Assembly (NCBI GenBank): GCA_947631405.1
Contig: CANRLC010000004.1
Location: 21,635-85,634, forward strand
Origin: an uncultured Clostridia bacterium
GTDB taxonomy: Bacteria; Bacillota; Clostridia; Christensenellales; Aristaeellaceae
Reading direction: 5' to 3'
DNA: 64,000 nt
Below, one piece after another: positions 17,485 to 33,600 of this stretch. Every line of letters begins with the position of its first letter. The stretch's first letter is position 1. The translations under genes and the position numbers were made by a program. Under the pieces are notes generated by a model, which searched no databases, was not told the DNA's origin, and saw only the letters and a program-made list of their open reading frames with translations.

Positions 17485-17561
17485 GCGCCCGTAGCTCAGT
17501 TGGATAGAGCGTCAGACTCCGACTCTGAAGGCCGCAGGTTCGAACCCTGTCGGACGCACCA
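17485..17561 (+). tRNA. tRNA-Arg (anticodon CCG), with encoded CCA
   Basis: The cloverleaf was folded by hand. The acceptor stem is GCGCCCG/CGGACGC with one C:A mismatch at 4:69. The D arm is GCTC-AGTTGGATA-GAGC. The anticodon stem is TCAGA/TCTGA with loop CTCCGAC. The T arm is GCAGG-TTCGAAC-CCTGT, followed by ACCA. Confidence 0.85.
17516..17561 (+). repeat. att copy 1 (attL of element 1): the last 46 nt of tRNA-Arg
   Basis: ACTCCGACTCTGAAGGCCGCAGGTTCGAACCCTGTCGGACGCACCA is identical at 31069-31114. It matches 45 of 46 positions at 35299-35344. Confidence 0.85.
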
Positions 17562-17568
17562 GACAAAA

Positions 17569-17606
17569 ACCGTTGACTTGTAAGGAAAAGTCAGCGGTCT
17601 TTTTAT
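17569..17606 (+). terminator. Intrinsic terminator after tRNA-Arg
   Basis: ACCGTTGACT pairs with AGTCAGCGGT and is followed by CTTTTTATT. Related versions follow att copies 2 and 3. Confidence 0.65.
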
Positions 17607-17655
17607 TATGTTTTATGAACTGTTCCGGCGCTTTGGTACACCATTTGGTACACCA

Positions 17656-18837
17656 TCAGCCGTTTTTGGTCTGCTTCCCGTACATGAATTGGCTCATGGC
17701 GTCCGACAAGCCCGCGTCCTTTTCTTCGTATGCGTGGGCGTAGATGTCAAGCGTCGTCGAGATTCGGCTGTGTCCCAGGCGGCGGCTTATGGAAGCAATG
17801 TCCGCCGACCCGCTCACGAGCAAAGACGCGCCCGTGTGCCGCAGGCCGTGAAGATTTAAGGGCGGCAGACCGTGCTTTTTCTGGAAGAGCGGGAACCACT
17901 TCGTTGGAGACTGAACGAACATCCGCGAGCCGTCGTCCTGTGTGAAAACGGCGTCTTCGTCCTTCCAATTCGGCCCACAAACAAGGCGTATACGATTTTG
18001 TTCCCGCTTCCACTCTTTGAGCGCGTCGAGCGTTTTGTCGCTAATGTGAATTATACGCTTCCCGCTTTCGGTCTTTGGGCTTTTGAGATATTGTCCGACG
18101 CCTTTTGAATAGGCACAAGAGCGCTTGACGGAGACGGTTTGCTTTGTCATGTCGATGTCCGCCCAATTCAGGCCGATACACTCGCCACGGCGCATTTGTG
18201 AATCGAGCGCGAGCAGGCCGTATGCTTTCCACTTGGCCGGGGCGTCCTCCAGCGCTTCCACGAGCCGCGCAACATCGTTTTCACTATACACGGGGCGCTC
18301 AGCCGTGTCCTTCCTTGGCGGGATGATGTTATCTGCCGGGTTTATCATGATTAGCTGTTCTCGCTGCGCCGTTTTCAAAATCAGATGAAGCAGCGTGTAG
18401 AATTTCAGCGAATATGTGCCGCTCAGGTTCTCCTTTTCAAGCCCTGCAAAGAAGCTGTTTAGGGTCTTCGGGTCGATGTCGCGCAGCTTCAGCTTTCCCA
18501 GCCGTGGAACAATTCGTGTGTCTAAAAGGTTTTGATATTCGGAGATTGTGCCCTTTGCAAGCCCTTTTCGCTTGCAATATGTGACCATCCATTGCTCCGC
18601 ATATGCCTTTAACGTTATCGCCTTTTGTGGGCTGATCTTCTGATCCTCCAGCTCTATCCGAAAGCGTTCCGTTGCCTTGCGAGCCTCCGCGCGCTGGGCG
18701 CTTTCACTCTTGCGCGGGTCAAGGTGGAGTGTGCGGGATGGCATGATTTTCCGGCCCGCTCCGTCATAACCGCAACTGACGCGGATGAGCCACGTTCCGC
18801 CGCCTTTGTTGATCGGCTCAATCCCTTTTCCTTTCAT
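17656..18837 (-). CDS. int: Tyrosine recombinase / phage integrase (element 1)
   Basis: The C-terminal catalytic region reads HGLRHTGASLL...LGHSRISTTLDIYAH (R..H..R..Y signature). The start was placed at the ATG at 18837, preceded by AGGGGG. The gene is adjacent to attL. Confidence 0.9.
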   Translation of the reverse strand: MKGKGIEPINKGGGTWLIRVSCGYDGAGRKIMPSRTLHLDPRKSESAQRAEARKATERFRIELEDQKISPQKAITLKAYAEQWMVTYCKRKGLAKGTISEYQNLLDTRIVPRLGKLKLRDIDPKTLNSFFAGLEKENLSGTYSLKFYTLLHLILKTAQREQLIMINPADNIIPPRKDTAERPVYSENDVARLVEALEDAPAKWKAYGLLALDSQMRRGECIGLNWADIDMTKQTVSVKRSCAYSKGVGQYLKSPKTESGKRIIHISDKTLDALKEWKREQNRIRLVCGPNWKDEDAVFTQDDGSRMFVQSPTKWFPLFQKKHGLPPLNLHGLRHTGASLLVSGSADIASISRRLGHSRISTTLDIYAHAYEEKDAGLSDAMSQFMYGKQTKNG

Positions 18838-18971
18838 ATATAGCCCCCTATCCCCCCTAAAAAATGTCACTTTGTCACTTGGGCGAAAAAATCCTTATGC
18901 CGTCTAGCTTTTTTGCGTGACAAAACCCGTTTTAGATTTGTCATAGCTTGTCACCAACGGGCGAAATTTTG

Positions 18972-19571
18972 TCACTCTTCGCGCTGAAATGGAGATTCTG
19001 CCAAAGATTCAGACAAGCGCTCGAAGTGCTTTTGTTTCCATAAGGTAAACAATTCTTCGTCAATCTCCCCCGCCCGGTATAGTTCTAAATACCTTCGGTA
19101 CGGCTCAGAAAAACGCGCAGCGGCGGTATAGTAAATTTTCAGCGTAACACAGCCGTACTCGGTACATTTCCCAGTTTTTTCTTCTTCTTCCTCGCAATAG
19201 CGCTGTTCTTCCTCGTCAAGGCCAGGATACTCTTTCCAAGGAATATAGGAAGTGCTTATTTCCACAGGGACTAGTTTTGCTTCACATAATTTTGTAAAAT
19301 AATAAAGATATTCTCCGCCAGTCATTGGCTCTACTTTGTTTGCATCTTCAATCCCGCAAAGACTGTCCAGTGTCACGCCATAGTAACGGGCAAGCCGGAC
19401 AGCATAATCAAGCTGTGGTTGCTTCTTTCCTGTCTCATAGGCGGACAGCGCCGCGGCGGTCATTCCCACTTTTGCGGCTACTTCCTGCTGTGTCTTCCCT
19501 GCCTTTTTTCGCAGCGCAAGCAGATTTGCGGACAATGTTTTCAATTCCACCATACTACACGCACGCCCCAT
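18972..19571 (-). CDS. XRE-family HTH repressor (cI-like) with an unassigned C-terminal domain
   Basis: The N-terminus LRKKAGKTQQEVAAKVGMTAAALSAYETGKKQP is an HTH_XRE motif. The gene is divergent from the rightward early operon. The start may instead be the ATG at 19553. Confidence 0.8.
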   Translation of the reverse strand: MGRACSMVELKTLSANLLALRKKAGKTQQEVAAKVGMTAAALSAYETGKKQPQLDYAVRLARYYGVTLDSLCGIEDANKVEPMTGGEYLYYFTKLCEAKLVPVEISTSYIPWKEYPGLDEEEQRYCEEEEEKTGKCTEYGCVTLKIYYTAAARFSEPYRRYLELYRAGEIDEELFTLWKQKHFERLSESLAESPFQREE

Positions 19572-19600
19572 CTTTCTTAAATTGTGGTTTATCTTTTTGT

Positions 19601-19630
19601 ATTATAGCGCATCCTGCCGTGAATTGTCAA
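19601..19630 (-). promoter_or_regulatory. Leftward promoter for the cI-like repressor
   Basis: On the minus strand, TTGACA (19625-19630), an 18-nt spacer and TATAAT (19601-19606) are present. Confidence 0.5.
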
Positions 19631-19685
19631 TATTTATTCGTTTACGAAAAGTTGTTTATTTGCTCGACATTCGCTTCTCGTAGCG

Positions 19686-19714
19686 TTGACAAACTTTTCG
19701 AGACGTGGTATAAT
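19686..19714 (+). promoter_or_regulatory. Rightward early promoter of element 1
   Basis: TTGACA (19686-19691), a 17-nt spacer and an extended -10 TGgTATAAT (-10 at 19709-19714) are present. The CTTTTCG operator half-site lies in the spacer. Confidence 0.65.
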
Positions 19715-19819
19715 GTTTTCTGCGAAAAGACATAGCTTCGAACGCAAGGAGGGGTTGCAGATGCAGAACATCGTTCGAGCTGGAAAGAAAACAGACTTGC
19801 AGAAAGGGGATGAATTGGC

Positions 19820-20026
19820 GTGACGCAGCTGGTAAACATCACGCGCGCGTCTGAGATGACAGGCGTGAGCAAGTACGAGCTCCGCCGGGGCGCAAAGCAA
19901 GGGCGGTATCCGTTTATTTTGTGCGGAAACAAGCTCATGTTTGACCCCGCGCAGCTCTCAGCCGTCTTTGAGCGGCAAATGGAGGAGAACAGGAGGGCGG
20001 CGCTTAAGTGCTCAACAAATTCATGA
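19820..20026 (+). CDS. Small HTH DNA-binding protein (excisionase/Cro-like)
   Basis: The GTG start at 19820 follows AAAGGGGA. VNITRASEMTGVSKYELRRGAKQGRYPF resembles the excisionase/MerR-type HTH_17 fold. It is the first substantial gene of the rightward operon. Confidence 0.6.
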   Translation: MTQLVNITRASEMTGVSKYELRRGAKQGRYPFILCGNKLMFDPAQLSAVFERQMEENRRAALKCSTNS

Positions 20027-22692
20027 TCGAGAATCCTTCGGGCTTCCCGCCTGAGTTATTGGGTCTAGATCAATGGGTTTGTTGGCGATATGTGAATCGG
20101 GACGGGAAACGCACAAAGGCCCCCTTCACGCCTGACGGGAGGGCGGCAAAATCAAACCGCGCGGACACGTGGACGAGCTACAAGAACGCCTCCAGCGCGG
20201 CAGGGTTTGACGGTGTCGGCTTTATGTTCGACGGGGAACACGTTGGAATCGACCTCGACCATTGCATAGACCAGAAAACGGGCGAGATCGAGCCGGACGC
20301 CCTCGCCATTGTCAACCGCGTAGACAGCTACACGGAACTCAGCCCAAGCGGGACAGGGTTGCATATCTTCTGCCGGGGCCAACTTAAAGGAAGCGGGCGG
20401 CGTCGCGGAAACGTCGAGGTATACGGCGCGGGGCGGTATTTCACCGTGACCATGCGTCCCTATGGCGAGCCGCGCCAGATGCGCGAGGCAAGCGCCGAAA
20501 TCGCCGCCGTTATCGCGGAATACATCGACAAGCCCAAAAGGGCCGGACAGCGGGCGGCGAAGGTAAATGAAGGTCAGAGACGGGCGCAGACGGTAAAAGA
20601 CGACGACCTGCTAGACAGGATTCGGAACAGCAAGCAGGGCGCATGCTTCGCCGCGCTGTGGAAGGGCGACACGTCCGCTTACCACGGGGACGATTCTGCC
20701 GCAGACCTCGCGCTGTGCAACATCCTCGCATTTTGGACGGGCAAGGACGCCGCACGGATGGACGACCTTTTCCGGCAATCCGGCCTCATGCGCGGCAAAT
20801 GGGACGAGCGGCACGGCCCGGACACCTACGGGCAGATGACCATTCGCAGGGCGATTGACGGCACGACGGAAACATACAGGGAGCCAAAGCGGATAGAAGC
20901 GCCTGACCTCCCGCAGATGAGCGAAGAAGGATCCCCGTTCCGCCGCTTCGAGGAAGCCTATCAGCACGTGAACGGCTATCTGGCCTCGCGCGGCATGCTT
21001 TACGCCGTGACGCAGGCAAAAGGCGAAATTCAAACCGCGCCGTTGGCCAAGTTTATCGCTGTGCTGACAGAAATCACGACGCGAGATAACGGCGTTGAAA
21101 CGTGCAAGGAGTTTTGCGTCGAAGGTATCAACAATTACGGCGAGCCTTTGCCACCGGTCAACGTCCTAGCAAGTCGATTCAGCGCCATGACGTGGCCGCT
21201 GGAGGCGTGGGGCGTCGATGCGAACATCTATCCCGGCATGTCTTGCAAGGAGAAGCTGCGATTTGCAATCATGGAAGCCGGGCACTTCACAGCAAGCCGC
21301 CGCACCGTTTACGAGCACACGGGCTGGAGGAAAATAGCGGGGAAATGGGCTTATCTCTACAATGGCGGGGCCATTGGCGCTGACGGTCTCAGCGTCGAAT
21401 TGGAGGGCGCGCTGGGCAGGTACAGTCTGCCGGAGCACGGCGGGAGCATGACGCCGACGCGGGAGCTTCTCAACGTATTGCCGCGCCGCGTGGCTATTCC
21501 TTTGCTTGCGCACGTCTTTCTCGCCCCGCTTCGGGAGTTTTTGAGCATGGCGGGCTGTACGCCGGCATTTATCCTCTTTCTTGCCGGGGCGACTGGCGCG
21601 AAAAAGAGCACGATTGCGGCGCTTGGCTTGTCCCATTATGGCGCAGGCTTTGATGGGCAGCACTTGCCCGCGAGCTTTCACGACACGCAAAACGCGCTGC
21701 GCCGCAAGGCTTTCTCCCTCAAGGACGCGCTTTTGATTATTGATGACCTGCACCCGACCAGCGATCCACGGGAGCGCCGGACGATGGACGGCAGCGCGCA
21801 AGCGATGGCGCGCGCGTGGGGAGACCTGGCAGAGCGTGGAAGACTGCGCGCAGACACATCTTTTCAGAAGGAACAGCCGCCGCGCGGTCTGGGCATGATG
21901 ACAGGCGAAGATTTGCCAGACGTGGGCGAAAGCGGGCTTGCCCGGTTCTTCCTCGTGGAAATCGGACGCGCGGAAATCACCGTTGACGATCGGCTATCAG
22001 ACCTCCAGCAACGGGCATCACGCGGCGAGTTTGCCGCCTCCATGCGGACTTATTTGGAATGGTTACTCCCCCGCGCGGATGACCTTCCCGGCAAGCTGGG
22101 CGATGCTTTCCGCAAGTACCGCAGCGAGGCGCGCGCGCGTCTTGTCGGCACGCATGACCGACAGCCCGCCGCCGTCGCGTGGTTGATGATCGGTTTTGAA
22201 ACGGCGTTGGATTGCATGGTTGACCACAACGAATTGACCGACGCGCAACGCGAAGACCTGCGCAAGGAAGCGTTTGAAACGCTCATCAACACGGCCAGCG
22301 AACAGCAACGGGATATGGCGCAGGCGTCGCCGTGTAAACTATTTATATCGACCTTACTTCAAATGGAAGCGGCGGGCGATGTGTCATTCGTCCAACTTGG
22401 CGGTTATGCGCCGCCGATTAGCTATCAAAGCGCTGCGCAAAATATCGGTTACAAGGATGAGGACTTTTATTATCTGCATCCTGTGTTGGCTTATGGCGCT
22501 GTCAATGACGTTTTGCGCGATAATGGAACGAGCTTGCCAGTCTCGCGCGGTCGCCTGTGGCGGCAGATGGGCGAAGCCGGATTGATTGAGCTTGCGCCAA
22601 ATGGGGACACGAGCAAAACGAAGAAAGTAGGCCCCAAAGATTCGCCCCGCGTCGTTTGGTTGAAGCGACAAAAGGCCGAAAGCCTCGCGTAA
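20008..22692 (+). CDS. Bifunctional primase-polymerase / helicase replication protein
   Basis: The N-terminal prim-pol signature is WVCWRY...KAPF...GVGFMFDG..VGIDLDHC...SPSGTGLHIF. The central region is PriCT-like (ADLALCNILAFWTGKD...). The C-terminal P-loop domain has the Walker A motif GATGAKKST (DUF927/D5-like). Confidence 0.8.
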   Translation: MLNKFMIENPSGFPPELLGLDQWVCWRYVNRDGKRTKAPFTPDGRAAKSNRADTWTSYKNASSAAGFDGVGFMFDGEHVGIDLDHCIDQKTGEIEPDALAIVNRVDSYTELSPSGTGLHIFCRGQLKGSGRRRGNVEVYGAGRYFTVTMRPYGEPRQMREASAEIAAVIAEYIDKPKRAGQRAAKVNEGQRRAQTVKDDDLLDRIRNSKQGACFAALWKGDTSAYHGDDSAADLALCNILAFWTGKDAARMDDLFRQSGLMRGKWDERHGPDTYGQMTIRRAIDGTTETYREPKRIEAPDLPQMSEEGSPFRRFEEAYQHVNGYLASRGMLYAVTQAKGEIQTAPLAKFIAVLTEITTRDNGVETCKEFCVEGINNYGEPLPPVNVLASRFSAMTWPLEAWGVDANIYPGMSCKEKLRFAIMEAGHFTASRRTVYEHTGWRKIAGKWAYLYNGGAIGADGLSVELEGALGRYSLPEHGGSMTPTRELLNVLPRRVAIPLLAHVFLAPLREFLSMAGCTPAFILFLAGATGAKKSTIAALGLSHYGAGFDGQHLPASFHDTQNALRRKAFSLKDALLIIDDLHPTSDPRERRTMDGSAQAMARAWGDLAERGRLRADTSFQKEQPPRGLGMMTGEDLPDVGESGLARFFLVEIGRAEITVDDRLSDLQQRASRGEFAASMRTYLEWLLPRADDLPGKLGDAFRKYRSEARARLVGTHDRQPAAVAWLMIGFETALDCMVDHNELTDAQREDLRKEAFETLINTASEQQRDMAQASPCKLFISTLLQMEAAGDVSFVQLGGYAPPISYQSAAQNIGYKDEDFYYLHPVLAYGAVNDVLRDNGTSLPVSRGRLWRQMGEAGLIELAPNGDTSKTKKVGPKDSPRVVWLKRQKAESLA

Positions 22693-22810
22693 AGCCCGCC
22701 TGACAGCCTGCGCGCCCGTCTGACGGCTTCCGGGCCGATGCTGGAGGGATTGCTCATCATCGAACACGGCGCGCCAGAACGGCTTATAACGCAAACAAGG
22801 AGGAAACACA

Positions 22811-23950
22811 ATGAACGAAGTTATAAAAATCGACCCGGCGCTCAGAGATTTAATCCCACCTCTGGCAAGCGATGAGCGGTCAAAACTTGAAGAAAGTATC
22901 GTTTCGGAAGGTTGCAGAGAAGCGCTAATTTTATGGAACGGCACGCTGATAGACGGTCATAACAGATATGAGATATGCAAGAAACATGGTATCAGTTTCA
23001 AAACCACGCAGAAAAATTTCCGTGACCGTGACGATGCAATTTCATGGATGATTAAGAATCAGATCGGCAGGAGGAATCTTCCGGCATATGAGCGGACGAG
23101 GTTAGTGCTAAGATTAAAACCTTCAATCGCAGAAAAGGCGAAAAAGAATCTTGTAACGTCTACTGGCGGTTGCAATGCCCGACCTTTGCAGAAATCTGCA
23201 AAGGCGGGAAGCGTCAACACCGTGGAAGAAATCGCAAAGGCCGCTAACGTTTCCCGCGATACGGTTCAGAAAGTGGAAAAGCTGGAATCAATGGCACCGC
23301 CTGAGATAAAGCAAAAATTACGTTCTGGCGATATGTCCATCAATGAAGCGTATCAGCTTGTCCGGCGTCAAGAGAAGGAAGAAGCGCGAGAAGAACAGCG
23401 GCAGGAAAACGCGGAGAAGGTGAAAAAGCTCGCAACGCCGCTGGACGCACAAGGGCTGTTCCAGACGATTGTGATTGACCCGCCGTGGGACTGGGGCGAC
23501 GAGGGCGACGTTGACCAATTCGGCAGGGCAAGGCCGGACTACACAACGATGTCGATTGAAGAAATCGAAAAGCTCCCTGTTGGAAAGATCGCGGATGAAA
23601 ACTGTCACCTGTATCTGTGGGCCACGAATCGGAGCCTGCCGAAAGCGTTCAGGCTGCTGGAGGCGTGGGGATTCAGATACATTACCTGCCTGACGTGGGT
23701 GAAGCCCAGTATCGGAATGGGCAACTACTTCCGCGGAGACACGGAGCAGGTCATTTTCGGCGTGAAAGGAAGCCAGATGCTAAAGCGAAGGGATGTAGGA
23801 ACGCACTTCAACGCGCCGCGCGGAGACGGTCACAGCGCAAAGCCGGACGCTTTCTACAAGCTGGTCGAATCGTGCAGCTACGGCCCGTATATTGACATTT
23901 TCGGGCGCAAGGAACGCGAAGGTTGGTCTGTGTGGGGTGAGAACGGTTGA
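22811..23950 (+). CDS. ParB-like N-terminal domain fused to an MT-A70 family N6-adenine DNA methyltransferase
   Basis: The N-terminus (LILWNGTLIDGHNRYEIC) is ParB/Srx-like. The C-terminus has the catalytic motif VIDPPWDW and YLWATN, which are typical of MT-A70 methylases. Confidence 0.8.
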   Translation: MNEVIKIDPALRDLIPPLASDERSKLEESIVSEGCREALILWNGTLIDGHNRYEICKKHGISFKTTQKNFRDRDDAISWMIKNQIGRRNLPAYERTRLVLRLKPSIAEKAKKNLVTSTGGCNARPLQKSAKAGSVNTVEEIAKAANVSRDTVQKVEKLESMAPPEIKQKLRSGDMSINEAYQLVRRQEKEEAREEQRQENAEKVKKLATPLDAQGLFQTIVIDPPWDWGDEGDVDQFGRARPDYTTMSIEEIEKLPVGKIADENCHLYLWATNRSLPKAFRLLEAWGFRYITCLTWVKPSIGMGNYFRGDTEQVIFGVKGSQMLKRRDVGTHFNAPRGDGHSAKPDAFYKLVESCSYGPYIDIFGRKEREGWSVWGENG

Positions 23951-24339
23951 GCAACCGCAGGCAACGCCGCCCTGCTTCGTTCTGCGCCGTCTGAGGCTGT
24001 CAAAACAGGGCCTGTCGCGCGTTCCGGCTGGCTGGAGGTGCAGACGGTCGTTCCGATGTGGACGCGGCGAGAGAGCCTATTTTGACGGCCTGACGGGGCG
24101 CTGACGGGACGCACAGGAAACGGCAGAGCGCGAGCAGAAAACGCTTGTACAAAATGAAACAGGCCGGATTTCTCCGACCTGCTCATTGAGTAGGAACCCG
24201 GTCAAAGGTTCCTTTTACGATGAAAGGGATTTCTCCCTATCTGCCCAGCCGATCAAGGCCGGGCTTTTCGATACCTCAATGATAAAGCATATGTTGCGCC
24301 GTTGTCAAGAGTGCATCCCTGAAAATTTTTGCCGCTTTT

Positions 24340-24957
24340 TTATATTGCGAGCGCTTCTTGAATCCGTTGTTTCAAAGTTTGGTCTGAATTGGGAGACAGC
24401 TCTTTCTGCACATCGAGAAGCAGAGAACGCAAGACTTTTATCTTTTCTTCTTTTGCGTCTCCGCGCTTCTGCGCCGTCTCCAGCTTTCCTTCAACCGTCT
24501 TATAGTATCCGTATAGATCGGTAACAGAAGCAAGCGCGCGATCAACGGCAAGCATATCCGCCTTTGTAAGAACCGCTTTGCGCTGTGTAAGGCGGGCTTT
24601 GCTGACAGAACGTATTCCGGCAACATCAACATAGCCCTCAATCAGCAGCTTTCCTTGCGCATCCGTCTGCTGGGTAATTGGGACTAACAGAGCTGACTTT
24701 TTGCGCTGTGTCGCGTGCGTAATAGGGGCAACGCAAACACTTTGCCGATTTATAGATGTTGCGTCATTCTCAATAATCACACACGGATGATAGCCGCGCA
24801 ATTCTGTGCCAATATTATAGCCAAAATCGCATCCGTATACCTCGCCGCGTGTGACGCTGATCGTTTGGCCGGGAATGAGTCTTCGCGCCTTAATGTCCAG
24901 CTTTTTTTCTAGCCATTGAAGCTCGTCTTTTGTCTCTTGCAGGTCAATATTGGCCAT
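24340..24957 (-). CDS. MazF/PemK-fold toxin with N- and C-terminal coiled-coil-like extensions (205 aa)
   Basis: The core RGEVYGCDFGYNIGTELRGYHPCVIIEND...VCVAPITH...SVSKARL matches the PemK/MazF pattern (RGD-Y..DF.P..G.E..G.RP.vV.S.D...v..P.T). About 35 aa are added at the N-terminus and about 65 aa at the C-terminus. Confidence 0.65.
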   Translation of the reverse strand: MANIDLQETKDELQWLEKKLDIKARRLIPGQTISVTRGEVYGCDFGYNIGTELRGYHPCVIIENDATSINRQSVCVAPITHATQRKKSALLVPITQQTDAQGKLLIEGYVDVAGIRSVSKARLTQRKAVLTKADMLAVDRALASVTDLYGYYKTVEGKLETAQKRGDAKEEKIKVLRSLLLDVQKELSPNSDQTLKQRIQEALAI

Positions 24958-24972
24958 TGTGCATAGTCTCCT

Positions 24973-25176
24973 TTATTCTTCTTGCGGTTGCTTCCATTCG
25001 GCCTCTGACAGCTTCATATCTTCGCGGAGAAGCGTATTGACAAGGTTATTGACGGACATACCCTTTTCCCGTGCGTGCGCTTCTACGGCGCTTTTGCGCT
25101 CTTTAGGGATTGTAATGGCCAGTCGTGCATATGTGCGCTCATTGAAAGCGCGGCGGTAGTCTGTGGCTTTGGTCAT
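24973..25176 (-). CDS. Ribbon-helix-helix (CopG/Arc-like) antitoxin candidate
   Basis: This 67-aa ORF ends 15 nt upstream of the toxin gene and has the RBS GGAGGTG. YARLAITIPKERKSAVEAHAREKGMSVNNLVNTLL fits a beta-strand plus two-helix RHH layout. Confidence 0.6.
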   Translation of the reverse strand: MTKATDYRRAFNERTYARLAITIPKERKSAVEAHAREKGMSVNNLVNTLLREDMKLSEAEWKQPQEE

Positions 25177-25246
25177 GCTTTATCACCTCCATTATAAGCG
25201 GCCCTCCTCCACCCTGCAATGATTATATCAAAAAATCAAGAGTTTA

Positions 25247-25316
25247 TCTAGTGTTAGATTGCACAAGAATCTAGCGCTAGATTTGTTATGTCTAGTGCTA
25301 GACATCTAACGCTAGA
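25247..25316. promoter_or_regulatory. Four 12-bp palindromic operators (TCTAGnGnTAGA) overlapping divergent promoters
   Basis: The sites are TCTAGTGTTAGA (25247-25258), TCTAGCGCTAGA (25270-25281), TCTAGTGCTAGA (25291-25302) and TCTAACGCTAGA (25305-25316). The rightward promoter is TAGACA (25299-25304), 17 nt, then TGcTATACT (-10 at 25322-25327). The leftward TA promoter is TGaTATAAT (+ strand 25222-25227), with its -35 inside the first operator. Confidence 0.7.
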
Positions 25317-25465
25317 TGTGCTATACTCATAGTGTCGAAAGGGAAACCGCCCGGTGCTATGAGTGAGACGCTAGCCGCGCAGGATGACGCATAGGAGCCA
25401 GGGCACGAGCCGGGCGGGAACCCTGAAACAACACGAACGACCGACAAGCGAAAGGAGCAATCGCA

Positions 25466-25693
25466 ATGAAGTACAGCCGCTGGAACCGCACGATTAAGAG
25501 CCTCGCCGACGTGATCGAGCACGCGAACGAGATCAAGGCCGCGCAGGACAGGATGAACGCTCACGACCGGGACGAGGCCGACAACGAACTCGCGCTGATC
25601 GCTGACATGCTCCACCTGATGGGCAAGGAAATCCAATTCTTCCCTGACAGCGAAAGAAACTTCAAGGCCCATCTGATGAACCTTCCCGCCTGA
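25466..25693 (+). CDS. Hypothetical small protein (75 aa)
   Basis: The ORF has the RBS AAAGGAG. It is the first gene downstream of the operator-controlled rightward promoter. Confidence 0.5.
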   Translation: MKYSRWNRTIKSLADVIEHANEIKAAQDRMNAHDRDEADNELALIADMLHLMGKEIQFFPDSERNFKAHLMNLPA

Positions 25694-25814
25694 TGAGAGC
25701 TGGACGGCAACCAGCCGAAACGCCGCGAGGCGTAGCGGGACAGCCGAAAGTAGGGCGCAACCCTGACGGCGACCCTGACGGACGAACGACCGACACCGAA
25801 AAGGAGGCAAACCC

Positions 25815-26138
25815 ATGAAATTCAACCTTGCCGAGATCATGCGCCGCGCGTGGGAGATCAAGCGCGACCCGCGCCACGTCTACAGCTTCGGAACCTGCCT
25901 CAAGCTGGCATGGGCCGAGGCGAAGGGCGGCAAGCGCTACGGCGTCAACGTCGAGCTGGTGCGCGCGCAGGTCACGGCTTACATCGTCAAGCTGATGCGG
26001 AACATCCGCGACGAGCACGACGTCCACAAGCTGGAAGCGCTTCGGGCCGCGCTGCTGGCACCGATTGACCGGCACGGCGTTGCAGTGCTGGACGGCAAGA
26101 CGGCGGGCCTCGTGCGGTACGCTGTCCAGCACGCATGA
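25815..26138 (+). CDS. Hypothetical protein (107 aa)
   Basis: The ORF has the RBS AAGGAGG. Its leader is nearly identical to that of the preceding gene. Confidence 0.5.
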   Translation: MKFNLAEIMRRAWEIKRDPRHVYSFGTCLKLAWAEAKGGKRYGVNVELVRAQVTAYIVKLMRNIRDEHDVHKLEALRAALLAPIDRHGVAVLDGKTAGLVRYAVQHA

Positions 26139-26251
26139 AAAGAGCCGCCAAGGGCGGCAACCCTACGGCGGCGAGCGTCACCCAGGCAGACACGAACCGG
26201 GGGACGGCTCCAGTATAGCACGGGGCCGCCCTCCCACGCAAGGAGGAACGC

Positions 26252-26500
26252 ATGAACAACGTAACAATTCTGGCCGATGCGCTGCGAAGCGGGACGGCGA
26301 CACCTGACCAGATCGAAGCGGCGGCGGGCCTGTTGACCCGCTGGGCCGTGTTGCTGGCCGATGTGGAAGCGATGAGCGAATATCGCGCGCATTTTGTGGA
26401 ACTGCTGGCTAAAACTTATATCAAACTCGAACAGAAAGACAGCACGGAGGGAGGCGCAGAGCATGACAGCGGCAGAGCGGGAAGCGATGATTCTCAGTAA
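26252..26500 (+). CDS. Hypothetical protein (82 aa)
   Basis: The ORF has the RBS AAGGAGG and overlaps the start of the sigma-factor gene by 38 nt. Confidence 0.45.
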   Translation: MNNVTILADALRSGTATPDQIEAAAGLLTRWAVLLADVEAMSEYRAHFVELLAKTYIKLEQKDSTEGGAEHDSGRAGSDDSQ

Positions 26501-27044
26501 TCGCGGCCTTGTCGGCTTCGCGGCGCGGCGGTACAACCTGCCCGGCGCTGACGCGGATGACCTGTTCCAGATCGGCGCTATCGGGCTTATCAAGGCGGTT
26601 GACAGCTACGATGCGGGACGCGGCGTCAAGCTGGCTTCCTATGCCTTGCGCTGCATCGACAACGAGATTTTGATGGCCCTTCGTGTCAGTCAGAGACGCC
26701 GCCGGGAAGTTTCATTGGATTCGCCTTTGCTGGAGGACGCCAACAGCGGAAAGGCGCTGACGCTGGCCGACAAGCTGATAACGGAATCTGACACTGTGTT
26801 TGAAGCGGTGCGGCGGCAGATGCGGAATGAAGCGCTGCATAAGGCGCTGGAGGTTCTGAGCGAGCGAGAACGCGCTATCATCGTGGGACACTACGACCTC
26901 GACGGGCAAGGCGCGGTGAATCAAGCAGAACTGGCGCGGCGGATCGGCATCAGTCAGGGCTATGTGTCACGGCTGGAAAGGCACGCGCTCCACATCTTGA
27001 AAGCATACCTGACCGAGACGGGTACGGTCGAACAGACGGCATGA
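26463..27044 (+). CDS. Sigma-70 family RNA polymerase sigma factor (group 3, sporulation-sigma-like), element-encoded
   Basis: The start MTAAEREAMILSNRGLV follows GGAGGGAGG. Region 2 is DDLFQIGAIGLIKAVDSYD...KLASYALRCIDNEILM. The region 4 HTH is NQAELARRIGISQGYVSRLERHAL. Confidence 0.8.
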   Translation: MTAAEREAMILSNRGLVGFAARRYNLPGADADDLFQIGAIGLIKAVDSYDAGRGVKLASYALRCIDNEILMALRVSQRRRREVSLDSPLLEDANSGKALTLADKLITESDTVFEAVRRQMRNEALHKALEVLSERERAIIVGHYDLDGQGAVNQAELARRIGISQGYVSRLERHALHILKAYLTETGTVEQTA

Positions 27045-27083
27045 AGCCCGCACAAGTGAAGGAATAGACAGGAGGTTTCAAGC

Positions 27084-27305
27084 ATGACTGACACTTTGGC
27101 GCAGATTCGACGGTATATCAAGAATACGCGCAGCGACATTCCAGAAGGTTTTCAGGCGCGCTTGTCTGAGATCGTGGCGCTCGTGCAAATGTCACGGCGC
27201 GAAGATATTGTAGACGCCTTTTCACTTGCATTTAACTTTGGATTTGCTAAAGGCGTGAGATACACCAAACAGGAGAACAAGAAACGCCGCTTGACAAGAA
27301 GCTAG
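27084..27305 (+). CDS. Hypothetical protein (73 aa)
   Basis: The ORF has the RBS ACAGGAGG. It is followed by the hairpin GCCCGCCGCGTGCGGGC and then CTTTCTT. Confidence 0.45.
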   Translation: MTDTLAQIRRYIKNTRSDIPEGFQARLSEIVALVQMSRREDIVDAFSLAFNFGFAKGVRYTKQENKKRRLTRS

Positions 27306-27443
27306 CCCGCCGCGTGCGGGCCTTTCTTGATTATCAGGGTTGCCAGGGCCCTGACAAGGCTGTCTGGTCTGCTTCATGATAGCCTTTCTTCTGCCCTGCT
27401 GGCCCTGTGCTGACAGCGACGGGCACGGGCCGAACGCGAGCCA

Positions 27444-27487
27444 TTTGTGCGCCGTTTGTGCGCCGTTTTCGCGCCGTTTGATGCGAT
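27444..27487 (+). repeat. Four helically phased 11-bp direct repeats
   Basis: TTTGTGCGCCG, TTTGTGCGCCG, TTTTCGCGCCG and TTTGATGCGAT lie head to tail in a non-coding stretch. Confidence 0.7.
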
Positions 27488-27546
27488 GCGCAGAGGCCCA
27501 CGGCTGGAGGGGTAGATTAAACCGACCGCCGATTGAACAAGCGGTA

Positions 27547-27646
27547 TTCAAAGGGTGTAGGTTGAAGCGACACCCTTTTGAACGGGCGCTGTTCAAGGGT
27601 GTAAGTTGAAGTGACACCCTTTGCAAGCTGGTGTCAGTTGAACCGA
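27547..27646 (+). repeat. Two and a half copies of a hairpin/inverted-repeat unit of about 35 bp containing GTTGAA
   Basis: The first unit is TTCAAAGGGTGT-AGGTTGAAGCG-ACACCCTTTTGAA (27547-27582). The second is TTCAAGGGTGT-AAGTTGAAGTG-ACACCCTTTGCAA (27592-27626). A half unit GGTGTCAGTTGAACCGAC (27630-27647) follows. Confidence 0.7.
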
Positions 27647-27801
27647 CGGCAGCTATAATACCGTCACTTGAACTTACGCTATTCGCGCCGTGCGGGCACG
27701 CAGAGAATAAAAAACATCCTGCGCCCGCCGGGACAACGGACGCAGGGAGAAATGAAGATGTGCGCGAATGAAACGGAAACCGACCACAGGAGGATATATT
27801 T

Positions 27802-27984
27802 ATGATAACACAAGCGCGCAGACGTGTCAAGCCAAGCAGAGACACGGCCCTTTATGCTGTCAAGGGAACGCGCCGAGCGAGGCATGCCGCCGGGGTAATA
27901 AGGGGGCGTGCGCGCGGTGCGGGGGTAACTCCCGCGAGCACCCGAGCAAAACAAAAAGGCGCTATTTCAATCTGCCCGCGCTGA
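27802..27984 (+). CDS. Arginine-rich small protein candidate (60 aa)
   Basis: The strong RBS AGGAGG lies 7 nt upstream of the ATG. The translation is MITQARRRVKPSRDTALYAVKGTRRARHAAGVIRGRARG.... No homology was recognised, and the high Arg content could also arise by chance in GC-rich DNA. Confidence 0.35.
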   Translation: MITQARRRVKPSRDTALYAVKGTRRARHAAGVIRGRARGAGVTPASTRAKQKGAISICPR

Positions 27985-28148
27985 CAGCTATGAATAAGGG
28001 CTATCTGCTGGCCGGGAAAGCCTAGATCGAATCGAGCCTTTCTGTGCTGGCGGCATTTGTACGGGTCAAAGCATAAAAGGCGCTATCTGGCAGAAACGAA
28101 GCGGCCCGCCGTGTGTGTAGAGCGGTACTGTCTGGCGCAAAATGGGAC

Positions 28149-28177
28149 TTGACTAGACTAGTGAAATATGATAGAAT
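28149..28177 (+). promoter_or_regulatory. Promoter of the alpA-terS (packaging) operon
   Basis: TTGACT (28149-28154), a 17-nt spacer and TAGAAT (28172-28177) are present. Confidence 0.6.
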
Positions 28178-28260
28178 AATAAGTGAACGGGACGCCCGGA
28201 ACCTGACGGACGCCGCCGAAATCGGACGCCTGCGACTGGGCAGGCGGAGACAGCCGACAA

Positions 28261-28300
28261 GGGCTATAAGGTGCGATTGTGCGCCTTGTGGCCCTTTTTT
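28261..28300 (+). terminator. Intrinsic terminator inside the packaging-operon leader
   Basis: GGGC...AAGGTGC-GATTGT-GCGCCTT...GCCC is followed by TTTTTT (28295-28300). It lies between the promoter and the first gene, whose ATG is at 28340. Confidence 0.6.
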
Positions 28301-28339
28301 GCATCTTCCCAATTTTTCAGGCAGAAAGGAGTACGAACG

Positions 28340-28570
28340 ATGGAGAACCTACACGACCAAAGGGAAATAAGCCGGGCGTGGCGCGTCTCACGGAGCCTGT
28401 TTTACCGTCTCAGGCGGCTTCCTGACTGGCCGGAACCCGTCCGCCTTGGTAGACGCACGCTTTACCGAGAAACCGATTTAAGCGCGTTCCTAGAGCGCCA
28501 CACGGGCTTGCAGACGGGACAGCACGAGCGAAAACAGAAAGGAGGGCTGACAGATGGCGGCACGGACTAA
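28340..28570 (+). CDS. AlpA-family HTH transcriptional regulator
   Basis: ISRAWRVSRSLFYRLRRLPDWPEPVRLGRRTLYRETDLSAFLE matches the Phage_AlpA pattern (GvSrstiYrl...FP.Pv.lg.r...W...ev..Wl). The RBS is AAAGGAG. Confidence 0.7.
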   Translation: MENLHDQREISRAWRVSRSLFYRLRRLPDWPEPVRLGRRTLYRETDLSAFLERHTGLQTGQHERKQKGGLTDGGTD

Positions 28571-29156
28571 AACGGACACACAAGCAAGAAAGACTTCGCT
28601 GCGAGCCGTCGGCGGTCAGATTCAGAGCAACAGGAACAACATGCCGGGACACGCAAAGCTGATGACTGAGGACGGCGACAACGGGCGGTATGTTCGCCAC
28701 GCTTTGACAGCTATGGATTTGCCGCCTATCGACATTTCCGACCCGGCACAGGTCGAACAGCGAATCCGCGAATACTTCCAATACTGCGAAGAACAAGATT
28801 GTAGACCGGGCTTTGTCGCGCTGGCAAATTGGATTGGAATTGACCGCACGACGCTTAACTCATGGAAACGCGGCGAATACAGGAACACCACGCACTCCCA
28901 CATCATCAAAAAAGCGGTTTCACTTTTGGAGGGAATTTGGGAGGAACTTATGGCAGAAGGGCGGATAAACCCTGTTGTCGGGATTTGGATGGGCAAACAG
29001 TATTATCAGCAATCCGACCGGCAAGAGCTGGCAATCACGCAAGATCATGAGGTTCGCCCAGCCCTGACGGTAGATGAAATCTGTAAAAACCTGCCAGAAA
29101 TAGACGAATCGCTGTATCTTGACGCTGACGCCTCCAGCTACGATGAAGGAGCGTGA
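28554..29156 (+). CDS. terS: Terminase small subunit (TerS)
   Basis: QRIREYFQYCEEQDCRPGFVALANWIGIDRTTLNSWKRGE...INPVVGIWMGKQYYQQSDRQE fits the HTH-type TerS pattern (PT..GLA..LGI.r.TL..w....n..g.IF.lKn.fG..D). The RBS is AGGAGGG. No large-subunit gene follows. Confidence 0.7.
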   Translation: MAARTKTDTQARKTSLRAVGGQIQSNRNNMPGHAKLMTEDGDNGRYVRHALTAMDLPPIDISDPAQVEQRIREYFQYCEEQDCRPGFVALANWIGIDRTTLNSWKRGEYRNTTHSHIIKKAVSLLEGIWEELMAEGRINPVVGIWMGKQYYQQSDRQELAITQDHEVRPALTVDEICKNLPEIDESLYLDADASSYDEGA

Positions 29157-29413
29157 CGCCGCTGATGGATGAGGAACTTTTGGCAGCGCTCGACCATGCG
29201 CAGGCGTGCGATTTAGGAGAGGGCCGAGAGCTGCGCGCGCTGGTCAAGCTGTTTTGGTCTTGGACGGCGGTTTTTCCAGATTCAAAACTGCGCTCAAATG
29301 GCCGTCACCGACTGCGACAACAGGTCATCCGCTACGCAAACGAGATGACGCTTCCACCTCCAGCGGAAAACGATGAAACGACGGACGGCGAAAGCCAAGA
29401 AAGGAGAGATTGA
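29153..29413 (+). CDS. Hypothetical protein (86 aa or less)
   Basis: The ORF overlaps the terS stop (GTGA). The start is uncertain between the GTG at 29153 and the ATG at 29165. Confidence 0.4.
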   Translation: MTPLMDEELLAALDHAQACDLGEGRELRALVKLFWSWTAVFPDSKLRSNGRHRLRQQVIRYANEMTLPPPAENDETTDGESQERRD

Positions 29414-29416
29414 CTT

Positions 29417-30304
29417 ATGGAGCGCAAAACGAAACAGATTTTCACGGCAATTTCTGACGCATTGGGCCGCTATGACGGCACGGTTACAGACACCGTGAAG
29501 GCCTATCGTGCCGCCAAGGAAAAGGCGCGCGCCGATGCAAGCATCTTCAAAGATGAACAGACGGAATACAATCGCAGGCTGGAGGGCCTGAAAGCAAAGG
29601 CCCGCGCAGAGATTAAGCGAGCAGACGCGGCGCTTGTGGAATCCGTGCGAGATAAGAGCTTGCCGCTTCTGCGCGAGGCGCTAGGGTTCTACACGGCACA
29701 GATACCCAGCGACAACTTTATCAAACGTCTTCGCATCTTCTCAGAATTTGACCTGAAAATGACGCTGGCCGAAGCGCGGCAGCTTGCTGACCTTGCCGCA
29801 GACAACAATCTCGCGCTTCGTGCGCTGGCGACCGTTGCGGCGCGGTCTGGGCTTGACGTGCGCTTTCCGCAGCTCGAAGATTATGAACGCGACCTCCAGC
29901 AACTTGAAAAGCTCGTTCGCACGCCGATTTGCTACGTTCCGCAGGAGTATTTGCATGAAGGCTTGGAGTTATTCGCAGAGATACCCGCTTTCCGCGCAGA
30001 CGGCAGCGTCTGGTATTCGACAAAATCCGATTCTGTCGGCCTGCTTTTGATCGGCGCGAATTTCCGAAGCGTCTTTAAGGAACTGGACGAGACGGGCGAA
30101 CGCTGGGCGTCTTCTGTGGTTGCGAGCGTTCTTCCACTTGAAGACAGCGAAAAGGCCGCAGAGCATCAAGCAGCCGCCGAAGCTGTCAGCGTTGACGGCA
30201 CCACAGCAAGCAATCTGGAGCATGCGCGGCAGCTTGGGAAGCAGAAAGCCGATACAATGCGCGAAGCGGACGAAACCATGAAGCAATTCACGAACAGAGG
30301 ATAA
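29417..30304 (+). CDS. Hypothetical protein (295 aa), helical/coiled-coil-rich
   Basis: The ORF has the RBS AGGAGAG and no recognisable family. In PICIs this position after terS usually holds capsid-remodelling or interference genes. Confidence 0.55.
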   Translation: MERKTKQIFTAISDALGRYDGTVTDTVKAYRAAKEKARADASIFKDEQTEYNRRLEGLKAKARAEIKRADAALVESVRDKSLPLLREALGFYTAQIPSDNFIKRLRIFSEFDLKMTLAEARQLADLAADNNLALRALATVAARSGLDVRFPQLEDYERDLQQLEKLVRTPICYVPQEYLHEGLELFAEIPAFRADGSVWYSTKSDSVGLLLIGANFRSVFKELDETGERWASSVVASVLPLEDSEKAAEHQAAAEAVSVDGTTASNLEHARQLGKQKADTMREADETMKQFTNRG

Positions 30305-30352
30305 AGAGCATCGACGGCAAGCGCCGCGATTAAGAAAGGAGATCGCCACATC

Positions 30353-30640
30353 ATGGGAGAGGCACGGGAGACAAACCAAAAGAATTTTACAGACGATGTG
30401 AATAGCATTAGATGGATTCTTGGGAAAATCGGAGACAATGACTATACGGACAAAGAAAGCGGTCATTGTTTCGCAGACGACCTTGAAGAACTGGACAGAT
30501 TGCTTGGTGTTGCTGCAAAAGAATTTGAAGAAAGCGAATTTACGGACGCCCGCAAGTTATTGTGGAAGCGTACTCGAAATTTCACATTTCAGAGAATCAT
30601 TGACTATTACAAGCACGCGCGGCAAAACAGCGAGGAATGA
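30353..30640 (+). CDS. Hypothetical protein (95 aa)
   Basis: The ORF has the RBS AAAGGAG. It is the last gene before the right arm of element 1. Confidence 0.5.
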   Translation: MGEARETNQKNFTDDVNSIRWILGKIGDNDYTDKESGHCFADDLEELDRLLGVAAKEFEESEFTDARKLLWKRTRNFTFQRIIDYYKHARQNSEE

Positions 30641-31068
30641 TTCGCCTTTCGCTGGCACGGGACAATTTCAGAATGGGAAGGGCGGGACAAAACCCGCTCT
30701 TTCTTTGTGCGGATATTGCCCACACGGAGGGCGCGCGGCGCTGTGACAAAAGTGACAAACCAAAACAAATTTGTCACCATTTTTGTCACGCGAAAAATCT
30801 ATTCTACACAAGGGTTTTTCACAATAAAAATTAAAGAAGTGACAAAGTGACAAAAAATAATACATACATACTCCCCTTATATTTGAACGAGCCGCGCGAA
30901 GCTGCAAGCCCGCCCGTGTGGATAGGGTTGTGGTACACCATTTGGTACACCAAAACTGCGCAAAGTTTCGACAACTTGCGGAAAGATACGAAAAGAAAAA
31001 CGTTGCAGGCACTAATAAAATTGAACGCTGTACTACGCGATAACAAAATTCAGAAAGCATCAATCAAC

Positions 31069-31114
31069 ACTCCGACTCTGAAGGCCGCAGGTTCGAACCC
31101 TGTCGGACGCACCA
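31069..31114 (+). repeat. att copy 2 (attR of element 1 / attL of element 2)
   Basis: This 46 nt is identical to 17516-17561. It is followed by a diverged copy of the tRNA terminator (AAAAACCGTTGAG...GGCGGTTTTT). Confidence 0.85.
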
Positions 31115-31301
31115 AGCAAAAACCGTTGAGAACGCTAGATTTCTTGGCGGTTTTTCTTTATGGTTTCAAACTTAATTCTGCGGTCTTTATCTGGGTTTCG
31201 ACCGTTTTGTCACATTTCCTGTCACATTCCCAGTTAAATAACAGGCGATTAAGTCTAGTAGCGTCTATGTTTTTTGAGCATTTCGCATGTCACATACGCT
31301 G

Positions 31302-32420: not shown

Positions 32421-32495
32421 ATCGTCTTCTCCTTTCGATATGCCCACGGTATCCGATGTGAGGTTGTCAAGGTTCGACGAGCCTCCAGCGGCGGC

Positions 32496-32573
32496 CTATG
32501 CCTTTTCAACGGCCTCTTGAATCATCTGCTGGAGGTCTTCTCGATTTAGTGTAACATTGTTGTCAAGTTTCAT
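32496..32573 (-). CDS. Possible 25-aa ORF upstream of int2 and in frame with it
   Basis: The translation is MKLDNNVTLNREDLQQMIQEAVEKA followed by TAG, with the RBS AAAGGAG. The frame stays open from the TAG into the integrase ORF. Confidence 0.25.
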   Translation of the reverse strand: MKLDNNVTLNREDLQQMIQEAVEKA

Positions 32574-33483: not shown

Positions 33484-33600
33484 CGCCTCCTATTTTTCCC
33501 TATGAATCGTCTGGTTCTCCCGGTTTAGAAACGGCTTTTTGAAGGGGGTTGGACAAACACCTTACCGCCTCAAAATGGCGTATGATTTTTCTTTGTATTG

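Follow-up and report, generated by a model that had tools for sequence, protein, structure and literature searches.

A probable PICI-like phage satellite in a gut Clostridia-type bacterium and a TerS-linked protein family with a putative scaffold-type tail

Phage satellites drive gene transfer and phage defense. The 64-kb stretch of contig CANRLC010000004.1 analyzed here (positions 21,635 to 85,634; hereafter the window), from an uncultured Clostridia bacterium, raises the question of what kind of mobile element has settled at its tRNA-Arg gene: a low-GC island, Element 1 (E1), that encodes a terminase small subunit (TerS) without a large one (TerL), together with its own replication genes. 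The evidence set out below suggests that E1 is probably an integrative satellite resembling the phage-inducible chromosomal islands (PICIs), resident in a high-GC gut Clostridia-type bacterium and known here from its sequence alone. A layout of this kind is itself already familiar; what appears to be new is a family of proteins linked to TerS, represented in E1 by a 295-residue protein (o295), whose C-terminal tail resembles that of a presumed phage scaffold. Large surveys have placed satellites almost entirely in Proteobacteria and Bacilli, with a few in Actinobacteria (PMC10085698), and our literature search on satellites in Clostridia returned nothing specific. The dominant strict gut anaerobes are nearly blank in this respect, and E1 and its relatives offer a testable satellite lineage for Oscillospiraceae-type bacteria.

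PICIs are recognized by their genetic organization, their size, their attachment-site (att) repeats and their lack of structural genes (PMC6092414), and their core is made up of five components (PMC10085698). In behavior, they are marked by induction through a helper phage, specific packaging into phage-like particles and transfer at high frequency. E1 fits the first set in organization, size (13,553 bp, against ~12-15 kb), att repeats and absence of structural genes (PMC6092414), and carries four of the five core components, namely an integrase, a regulator, a primase-replicase and terS (PMC10085698). For the fifth, capsid morphogenesis, E1 has nothing recognizably homologous to the known cpm, ppi or rpp genes, and o295 is a candidate through its tail (see below). 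Gene calls for the 20 open reading frames (ORFs) of E1 were made against Pfam and PHROGs, with NCBIfam and PADLOC in addition, and the Pfam and PHROGs searches gave no match to TerL, portal, capsid, tail, lysis, relaxase, coupling-protein or type IV secretion system families. Likewise, the TerL, portal, MuF, FtsK and GP88 proteins of the phages related through TerS (see below) have no homologue within the window. These results agree with the preliminary description of this locus, which had proposed a PICI-like satellite of 13.5 kb with TerS but no TerL (here 13,553 bp and PF16677), with replication genes of its own (a prim-pol) and with no structural or lysis gene, and had held that conjugation or mobilization genes would instead mark an integrative mobilizable element (IME); none were detected. 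With four of the five core components in place, and neither structural or TerL genes, a stray helix-turn-helix (HTH) protein nor conjugation genes to set against it, the satellite reading stands.

Four other classes of element were considered for E1 and set aside. A temperate prophage would carry TerL, portal, major capsid, tail and lysis genes, and none was detected between the att sites. A capsid-forming PICI requires its own capsid, portal, connector/adaptor and terL genes, none of which was detected in E1 or in the window. Pfam and PHROGs returned no homologue of the Sid, Psu, Delta or Ash proteins that a P4-like satellite would carry, and the same searches detected in the E1 ORFs no relaxase, FtsK/TraG-type or type IV secretion family by which an IME or conjugative element could be recognized.

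The boundaries of E1 are well defined. The GC content of host DNA in the window is ~0.64-0.75, falling to 0.43-0.62 between 17.5 and 36.1 kb. A tRNA-Arg(CCG) gene lies at 17485-17561 (plus strand; ARAGORN; Rfam tRNA, 67 bits), and its 3'-terminal 46 nt (17516-17561) constitute the attL core and recur at 31069-31114 (46/46 identical) and at 35299-35344 (one mismatch). E1 is the span from 17562 to 31114 between the two identical repeats, and the copy at 31069-31114 (plus strand; direct-repeat family D1) serves both as the attR core of E1 and as the attL core of a second, smaller element, Element 2. The right end had earlier been placed at 31068, which merely marks where the attR core starts; the true end is 31114. 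A copy of the tRNA terminator hairpin trails each att copy, directly 3' of the E1 attR core in the form of a terminator-like site at 31118-31155, and integration therefore rebuilds both the tRNA and its terminator. The two elements lie in tandem at the tRNA, each with a tyrosine integrase of its own next to the left att, and the same site is occupied by a sister element recovered among our comparison loci (L018); neither Element 2 nor the sister element is a phage. For PICIs, an att site peculiar to the family and avoided by prophages is among the published criteria. One copy of the repeat TGGTACACCATTTGGTACACCA (two 10-mers; 22-nt unit TGGTACACCA; direct-repeat family D3, 100% identical) lies inside each end of E1, at 17634-17655 and 30931-30952, and these copies are candidate arm-type sites to which the integrase may bind. 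The right-arm region containing the second copy (30931-31098) and the att core give a 77% alignment in the sister element. On excision, an attP junction consisting of ATCAATCAAC, the 46-nt core and GACAAAAACCGTTGAC would be expected. Identical copies of E1, always beside Element 2, were found in several samples of one study. The contig itself, of 86.8 kb, is linked to samples ERZ27249631 and ERR10663762-5.

Central to the satellite reading is the nature of the TerS protein, a predicted P22 gp3-type terminase small subunit (28554-29156, plus strand; phrog_606, 8.6e-7). We found 251 homologues, and among the matches listed PF16677 is present in 120 of 120. Relatives at 40-58% identity sit in IMG/VR phage contigs and in metagenome-assembled genomes, the latter mostly of Oscillospiraceae, Acutalibacteraceae, Ruminococcaceae and Lachnospiraceae. 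In 13 GTDB loci, as well as in IMG/VR contigs, the homologue lies upstream of genes for TerL (phrog_38, 2e-63), an SPP1-type portal, a MuF-like protein and a Phage_cap_E capsid protein. The TerL match of one such phage, L025, begins 354 nt past its TerS match; in most of the related phages (L020-L034 and L052-L065) terS and terL are split by a 3-4 kb cassette that contains a small serine recombinase gene and often FtsK-like and GP88 genes on the minus strand. The E1 protein had been called TerS-like with the reservation that it might prove an unrelated HTH protein. Its relatives at 40-58% identity, carrying PF16677 and encoded ahead of TerL, portal, MuF and capsid genes, indicate that it is a genuine TerS, and we regard the prediction as sound, being marginal in score and strong in family evidence.

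The comparison with these phages also bears on the possibility that E1 is a decayed prophage reduced to its left half, with terL and everything downstream deleted. As far as the packaging genes, a temperate siphovirus has its genes in the same order as E1 (int, cI, cro-like, replication, late regulator, terS), and the tandem array at the tRNA points to repeated integration, which could favor deletions. However, TerS is the sole protein common to E1 and the TerS-related phages, and this speaks against decay from a prophage of their kind. Moreover, the two att cores are undamaged and match each other exactly, neither arm repeat is missing, no gene is disrupted, and several samples contain identical copies. 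The genes that follow terS are not head genes; instead, a family of ~255 clusters recurs beside TerS-like genes on other small elements with different replication modules, indicating a recurrent, selected design rather than a one-off deletion. We therefore consider a truncated prophage very improbable.

The terS operon runs in the order AlpA/MerR-type HTH gene, terS, an ORF of 82-86 codons, the gene for o295 and an ORF of 95 codons, with neighbors overlapping or 3-49 nt apart. Its first product is a small HTH protein of 76 residues (28340-28570, plus strand; phrog_66, 5e-6), whose gene overlaps the start of terS by 17 nt. Of the AlpA-like regulator followed by terS that had been described here, the order and TerS hold, whereas the AlpA assignment is weak (PF12728, 20.9 bits against a cut-off of 27). 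The 82-86-residue product encoded after terS (29153-29413, plus strand) has no family match; homologues at 37-40% identity follow terS in three comparison loci (L017, L018 and L019). The last ORF (30353-30640, plus strand) also has no family match and is called as a gene in the identical copies of E1. Between the two lies the o295 gene (29417-30304, plus strand), the E1 member of the TerS-linked family and a candidate scaffold mimic or capsid-size redirector.

A word-indexed search retrieved six clusters of the o295 family, and a full profile search ~255 (clustered at 50% identity, ~300 residues). In each of the seven loci with upstream sequence (E1, L017, L035, L036, L049, L050 and L051), the o295-like gene stands just downstream of a TerS-like gene, as judged by our own profiles and Pfam. 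None of 101 members of the family matches Pfam or PHROGs, searches of PADLOC and of PDB sequences were negative, and tblastn with two members against 50,697 GenBank phages gave no match. A first AlphaFold model of o295, built on six sequences, had a pLDDT of 55 and meaningless Foldseek matches; it was replaced by a model based on an alignment of 101 sequences, with a pLDDT of 94 and a pTM of 0.80. The latter predicts a long N-terminal hairpin of helices (residues 3-94), a part of mixed alpha/beta structure, a linker modeled with low confidence (~251-270) and a final helix (266-293), and Foldseek found nothing significant for it (best E 0.17 in PDB, 0.03 in BFVD). W230 is the only residue invariant among the 101 members, which argues against an enzyme and is a better fit to a structural or adaptor protein.

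A possible role for this protein is suggested by its C-terminus. Searching the o295 profile against 2,916 ORFs from the fetched loci and the window gave one match outside the family (E 2.7e-4), to a 196-residue ORF of phage L020, whose TerS is among those closest to E1 TerS (55%). The last 35 positions of the profile align end to end with the last 34 residues of this ORF, and none of 10,000 shuffles (5,000 of the whole sequence and 5,000 of the tail) reached its score. The ORF lies between the portal and MuF genes and a head-protein-like gene that is followed by the major capsid gene, a position that we take to be the scaffolding-protein slot, given the established gene order of SPP1-like siphoviruses. 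Among 14 IMG/VR homologues of the 196-residue protein there are two C-terminal types, which behave as interchangeable modules; one of these, A..A(R/K)..G(K/R)..A.....Y(V/M)(R/K), resembles the o295 tail, and two homologues of this type also match the o295 profile. An hhalign comparison of the two C-termini gave an E value of 7.9e-4, C-terminus to C-terminus. When the search was turned around and the phage tails, as a profile of 32 columns, were run against 3,947 sequences, the matches up to E 0.3 were, besides the scaffold candidates themselves, all o295-family C-termini, with a best value of 5e-7. Direct alignment of the E1 o295 tail, which contains LEHARQLGKQKADTMREADETMKQF, with the L020 tail gave a score reached in none of 20,000 shuffles.

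[quoted passage not shown] We propose o295 as a scaffold mimic because its tail match to a phage scaffold-position protein parallels this relationship, and we hold the proposal tentatively, at the level of sequence statistics. Several observations count against it. The L020 ORF is a scaffold by position and composition only, PHROGs giving it no function; the similarity extends over ~28-35 residues and was spotted after the fact; and the tail of E1 o295 itself is a weak match to the phage-tail profile (E 0.22). The preliminary description had placed capsid remodeling or helper interference in the genes after terS. The tail match of o295 lends support to capsid remodeling; as to location, the SaPI capsid genes lie before terS.

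[quoted passage not shown] The shared tail segment is short, and the remainder of the protein, a long helical hairpin and an alpha/beta part within 295 residues and without a fold match, does not resemble the 72-residue CpmB. The related elements differ in size, from 9.65 kb (L035) to 13.6 kb (E1), with partial contigs of 4.7-5.7 kb, and this range is an odd fit for one size-setting protein. Between size redirection and simple interference the tail does not discriminate, since the same similarity underlies both. On balance, we regard a satellite with an o295 of this other kind as rather unlikely.

Comparison of the elements that carry o295-like genes shows how widely the TerS/o295 pair is distributed. 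L017 encodes a repressor-like protein, an HTH_17 protein, a VapE helicase, a TerS that is 32% identical to that of E1, a homologue of the 82-86-residue protein and an o295-like protein at 69% identity. L049 and L050 share the order cI-like, xis-like, a gene for a 390-residue primase-helicase-like protein, TerS-like, a 70-codon ORF and o295-like. These three loci are partial contigs of 4.7-5.7 kb in which the regulator, the replication gene and the terS/o295 module are already all complete. L035 (1-9684) is a circular replicon of 9,654 bp, as indicated by a 30-nt terminal overlap, which encodes ParA, a 466-residue protein, a DnaB-type helicase, a resolvase, a TerS-like (GP3_package-like) protein and an o295-like protein, and which has three 33-bp iterons and no virion genes; it may be a plasmid-borne version of a hijacking cassette, and L036, with genes for a resolvase, TerS-like and o295-like proteins and ParA, looks like a second example. 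In the sister element L018, which shares the tRNA site of E1, TerS is 84% identical to that of E1 in protein and 86% in DNA, and a 1,484-codon ORF and two small ORFs stand in place of the AlpA-like, o295 and 95-residue genes. The long ORF (1377-5831 of L018), directly before terS, has no Pfam match, and its N-terminal third matches phrog_1535, a tail tape measure family (4e-53). Modules are swapped among small replicons without virion genes, a pattern unlike that of a one-off prophage deletion.

The same distribution leaves room for a different explanation, in which E1 is an IME with an unrecognized relaxase or oriT, or an island that does not transfer between cells, and in which the GP3-like protein and o295 form a DNA-binding or maintenance pair with no part in packaging. 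The occurrence of the TerS-like/o295-like pair on plasmid-like replicons with ParA, a DnaB-type helicase and a resolvase would suit this explanation, as would the seven small or medium E1 ORFs without an assigned function, the lack of an E1 relative in viral contig collections, and the presence of a Cys_rich_VLP gene in the neighboring Element 2, this family being common in Firmicutes conjugative transposons. However, neither Pfam nor PHROGs detects a relaxase, coupling protein or type IV secretion family in any E1 ORF, members of the TerS family elsewhere all lie in phages that have TerL, portal and capsid genes, the tail of the o295 family specifically matches a phage head-module protein, and the family is without conserved catalytic residues. 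An IME or a maintenance island therefore seems unlikely. Extending the satellite reading instead, we tentatively suggest that terS and the o295 gene could form a portable piracy cassette of gut Clostridia, combining a helper-compatible TerS with a new class of large scaffold mimic (~255 clusters, no known fold, absent from catalogued phages) on at least three unrelated backbones, namely islands that integrate at a tRNA and encode a prim-pol, minimal islands whose helicase is small, and circular ParA/DnaB plasmids.

If E1 is a PICI-like satellite, the following model would account for its gene content. A helper siphovirus would relieve the repression of E1, this helper perhaps belonging to the Oscillospiraceae phage group in which a related TerS occurs together with an SPP1-type portal, MuF and a lambda-E-type capsid protein. 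E1 would then excise and replicate from its origin, which may be the iteron and hairpin region at 27.4-27.6 kb, and its TerS would pair with the helper TerL, steering headful packaging to an E1 pac site. In this model, o295 would grip the helper capsid protein via a C-terminal tail copied from the helper scaffold, redirecting or blocking capsid assembly in the manner of SaPI1 CpmB and the 80alpha scaffold. The sigma factor encoded by E1 may drive its own late operon or the late genes of the helper, and the methylase and the MazF pair would protect and stabilize the element. Helper dependence, packaging and transfer are predictions of this model.

Several points weigh against this reading and should be set beside it. 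The Pfam score of E1 TerS is barely over the cut-off (31.1 against 29.4 bits), a search of the TerS profile against solved structures by sequence gave only spurious matches and no solved TerS, and in the phages with the 3-4 kb cassette between terS and terL the role of the TerS homologue is one that we infer. There is no helper prophage within the window, and no relative of E1 among 2.9 million IMG/VR contigs, where neither o295 alone nor a sub-alignment of its family found a match either; this absence could mean that elements of the E1 type are not encapsidated, or merely that virus-calling tools miss them. No attP junction was found in metagenome contigs, where contigs carrying the integrase hold the integrated form or break at the att repeat; neither this absence nor that from IMG/VR is informative. 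On plasmid-like replicons the TerS-like/o295-like pair possibly has a non-packaging role. Finally, excision, replication, packaging and transfer of E1 are all predicted from sequence.

Were the model correct, its implications would reach beyond this locus. The common TerS family and the common scaffold tail flag a candidate group of helper phages, and the o295 family could mark satellites, plasmid-borne ones included, in metagenomes where virus-calling tools fail. Tail mimicry, if true, would represent a second independent invention of the CpmB strategy and open a way to study what fixes the capsid size of these phages. The piracy cassette, if true, would mean that plasmids as well as islands act in these anaerobes as dedicated phage satellites.

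Among described satellites, E1 would appear to work most like a Gram-positive PICI, with no specific gene family in common with those described. Like SaPI1 and other Gram-positive PICIs, it is an att-flanked element of the 13-15 kb class with the integrase at one end and a repressor facing a Xis/Cro-like gene, and it has its own primase-replicase, a terS late operon without terL, cargo genes, and no virion or lysis genes (PMC6092414; PMC10085698). It may also share with SaPI1 a protein bearing a helper-scaffold-type C-terminal tail, as in CpmB and the 80alpha scaffold protein (PMC5644958). Unlike these islands, E1 shows no sequence kinship beyond generic families, and its TerS is of the P22 gp3 type (PF16677). 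Its candidate mimic has 295 residues, a fold of its own and a gene after terS, whereas CpmB has 72 residues and is encoded before terS. The SigK/E-like sigma factor, the leader terminator before the packaging operon and the high-GC anaerobe host further set E1, which is known from its genes, apart from the Gram-positive PICIs. With EcCICFT073 and other Gram-negative PICIs it has in common an integrase, an AlpA-type small HTH protein, a pri-rep gene and a presumed hijacking of packaging, and, like them, it fits the PICI pattern of organization, size and absence of structural genes (PMC6092414); it differs from them in its cI-like switch, in the position of its AlpA-like gene before terS and not beside int, and in having no recognized Rpp- or Ppi-type gene.

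Other comparisons are more limited. The relatives L017, L049 and L050 resemble PICMIs and the marine VEIMEs in being reduced to a regulator, a small replication gene, a TerS-like gene and another gene or two (PMC10803314; PMC9618062). PICMIs lack capsid-remodeling genes and are packaged as concatemers (PMC10803314), whereas E1 is larger and has a candidate remodeling gene. A primase/helicase, an AlpA-like regulator and integration at a tRNA are features that E1 shares with P4-like satellites. P4 has an alpha-helical capsid-size protein in Sid, and its late-gene transactivator Delta is a possible parallel to the E1 sigma factor. Unlike E1, P4 uses cos sites and has no TerS of its own.

The genes upstream of the terS operon supply the remaining core components and the cargo. 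The tyrosine integrase (17656-18870, minus strand; PF00589, 3.9e-25; phrog_1, 7e-68) is started by gene callers at the ATG at 18837, giving 393 residues, and this exact product is on record in eight contigs. It is followed by a cI/Stl-like XRE repressor of 199 residues (18972-19571, minus strand; PF01381, 7e-16; phrog_8, phrog_4 and phrog_3) with its HTH at residues 15-75, which matches the NCBIfam RstR-like family at 2e-16, under that family's cut-off. The C-terminal 120 residues of the repressor match no family, and there is therefore no recognizable S24/LexA-type autocleavage domain. A divergent promoter pair lies at 19601-19714 (19630-19601 on the minus strand, 19686-19714 on the plus strand), both members scoring 12/12 against the sigma-70 consensus. 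On the other side stands the gene for a small HTH_17-like protein of 68 residues (19820-20026, plus strand; PF12728, E 0.0089), which may be Xis- or Cro-like and overlaps the start of the next gene by 19 nt; in L017, the gene in this position carries PF12728 on record. The next gene encodes an 894-residue protein with a prim-pol, an NrS-1-type helix-bundle domain and a P-loop helicase (20008-22692, plus strand; PF22763, 1.9e-31; phrog_1829, 7e-86; phrog_13901, 2e-80), the analogue of pri-rep. Its P-loop is present, its match to DUF927 is weak, and its relatives in IMG/VR are distant only, at 35-39% identity.

The cargo comprises three recognizable functions. A ParB-like N-terminus is fused to an MT-A70 DNA methyltransferase of the orphan type II kind (22811-23950, plus strand; PF05063, 2e-22; phrog_359, 7e-55; phrog_4715; PADLOC MTase_II, 1e-48). 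A toxin-antitoxin pair on the minus strand consists of a toxin of the MazF/PemK fold (24340-24957) and an RHH/Arc-like antitoxin (24973-25176; for the pair, PF02452, 2e-20; phrog_1936, phrog_13890 and phrog_582). Beyond three small ORFs of 75, 107 and 82 codons (25466-26500, plus strand), which have weak PHROG matches without function and are all called as genes in the identical metagenome copies, lies a gene for a sigma-70-family sigma factor (26394-27044, plus strand; PF04542, 2e-16; PF04545, 7e-11; phrog_351, 1e-37), started by gene callers at 26463 to give 193 residues. This sigma factor is nearest to the mother-cell sporulation sigmas of NCBIfam (SigK, 179 bits against a cut-off of 252; SigE, 157 bits), both matches lying under the respective cut-offs. 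A weak match of the same protein to MzaA of the MZA defense system was also seen. A 73-codon ORF without an assigned family separates the sigma gene from a gene-free region of 1 kb.

Most of what had been said of this half of the island was confirmed by Pfam and PHROGs, including the integrase, the prim-pol/helicase, the sigma factor, the ParB-MT-A70 methylase and the MazF-fold toxin-antitoxin pair. The divergent cI/Xis switch was upheld in its repressor and its promoters, while the Xis call is weak (16.7 bits against a cut-off of 27). The suggestion that such an accessory load is unusual did not survive, orphan methylases, toxin-antitoxin pairs and sigma factors being not uncommon in phages and satellites.

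Two non-coding regions of E1 merit description. The first is a structured block at 23960-24320, just 3' of mazF, which is 92% identical to L017 over 344 nt, and ~98% identical over its central 145 nt, whereas the L017 proteins are far more diverged (as in its TerS). Its fold z-scores are -6.3 on the minus strand and -4.1 on the plus strand, and -7.5 for the minus strand of 24150-24272, a candidate transcript of ~120 nt; it contains four hairpins together with promoter-like and terminator-like sites. The block belongs to no Rfam family, and an exact 20-nt search of IMG/VR with one of its hairpins gave no match. It could be a small RNA, an origin or a pac site.

The second is the gene-free region (27306-28339), which contains no credible genes, and parts of which retain 82-91% nucleotide identity in the sister element L018. 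Three 11-bp iterons, TTTGTGCGCCG, are found at 27442-27480 and repeated hairpins, AAGGGTGT..ACACCCTT, at 27549-27623; together (27442-27623) they are a candidate origin and/or pac site, partly conserved in L018. They lie 4.7 kb downstream of the replication gene, whereas the iterons of PICIs adjoin rep. A candidate transcript of ~85 nt on the minus strand (27796-27705) has a promoter and a strong terminator. The region closes with a leader just before the alpA-like gene (fold z -4.5), made up of a promoter (28149-28177, plus strand) and a terminator hairpin with a 16-bp stem (28259-28296). With this hairpin ahead of the alpA-like gene, the packaging operon would seem to require antitermination or some dedicated factor, and the sigma factor could act here or on the late genes of a helper.

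Element 2 (31115-35344), of 4.2 kb, is enclosed by the second and third copies of the att repeat. It codes for a tyrosine integrase (31302-32447, minus strand), the Cys_rich_VLP protein (33844-34002; 6.9e-10) and a small serine recombinase (34344-34964), along with a few further ORFs without assignment, and no replication gene was recognized in it. Its recombinase is 42-45% identical to that of the terS-terL cassette in the TerS-related phages. Low GC content runs on for ~750 bp past the third att (35345-36100), where a 128-codon ORF for a PBECR2 nuclease-like protein (35576-35962; 28.6 bits against a cut-off of 27.1) is directly followed by a skipping-rope RNA (35993-36077; 41.6 bits, gathering score 36.7), and this segment may be the remnant of a third element.

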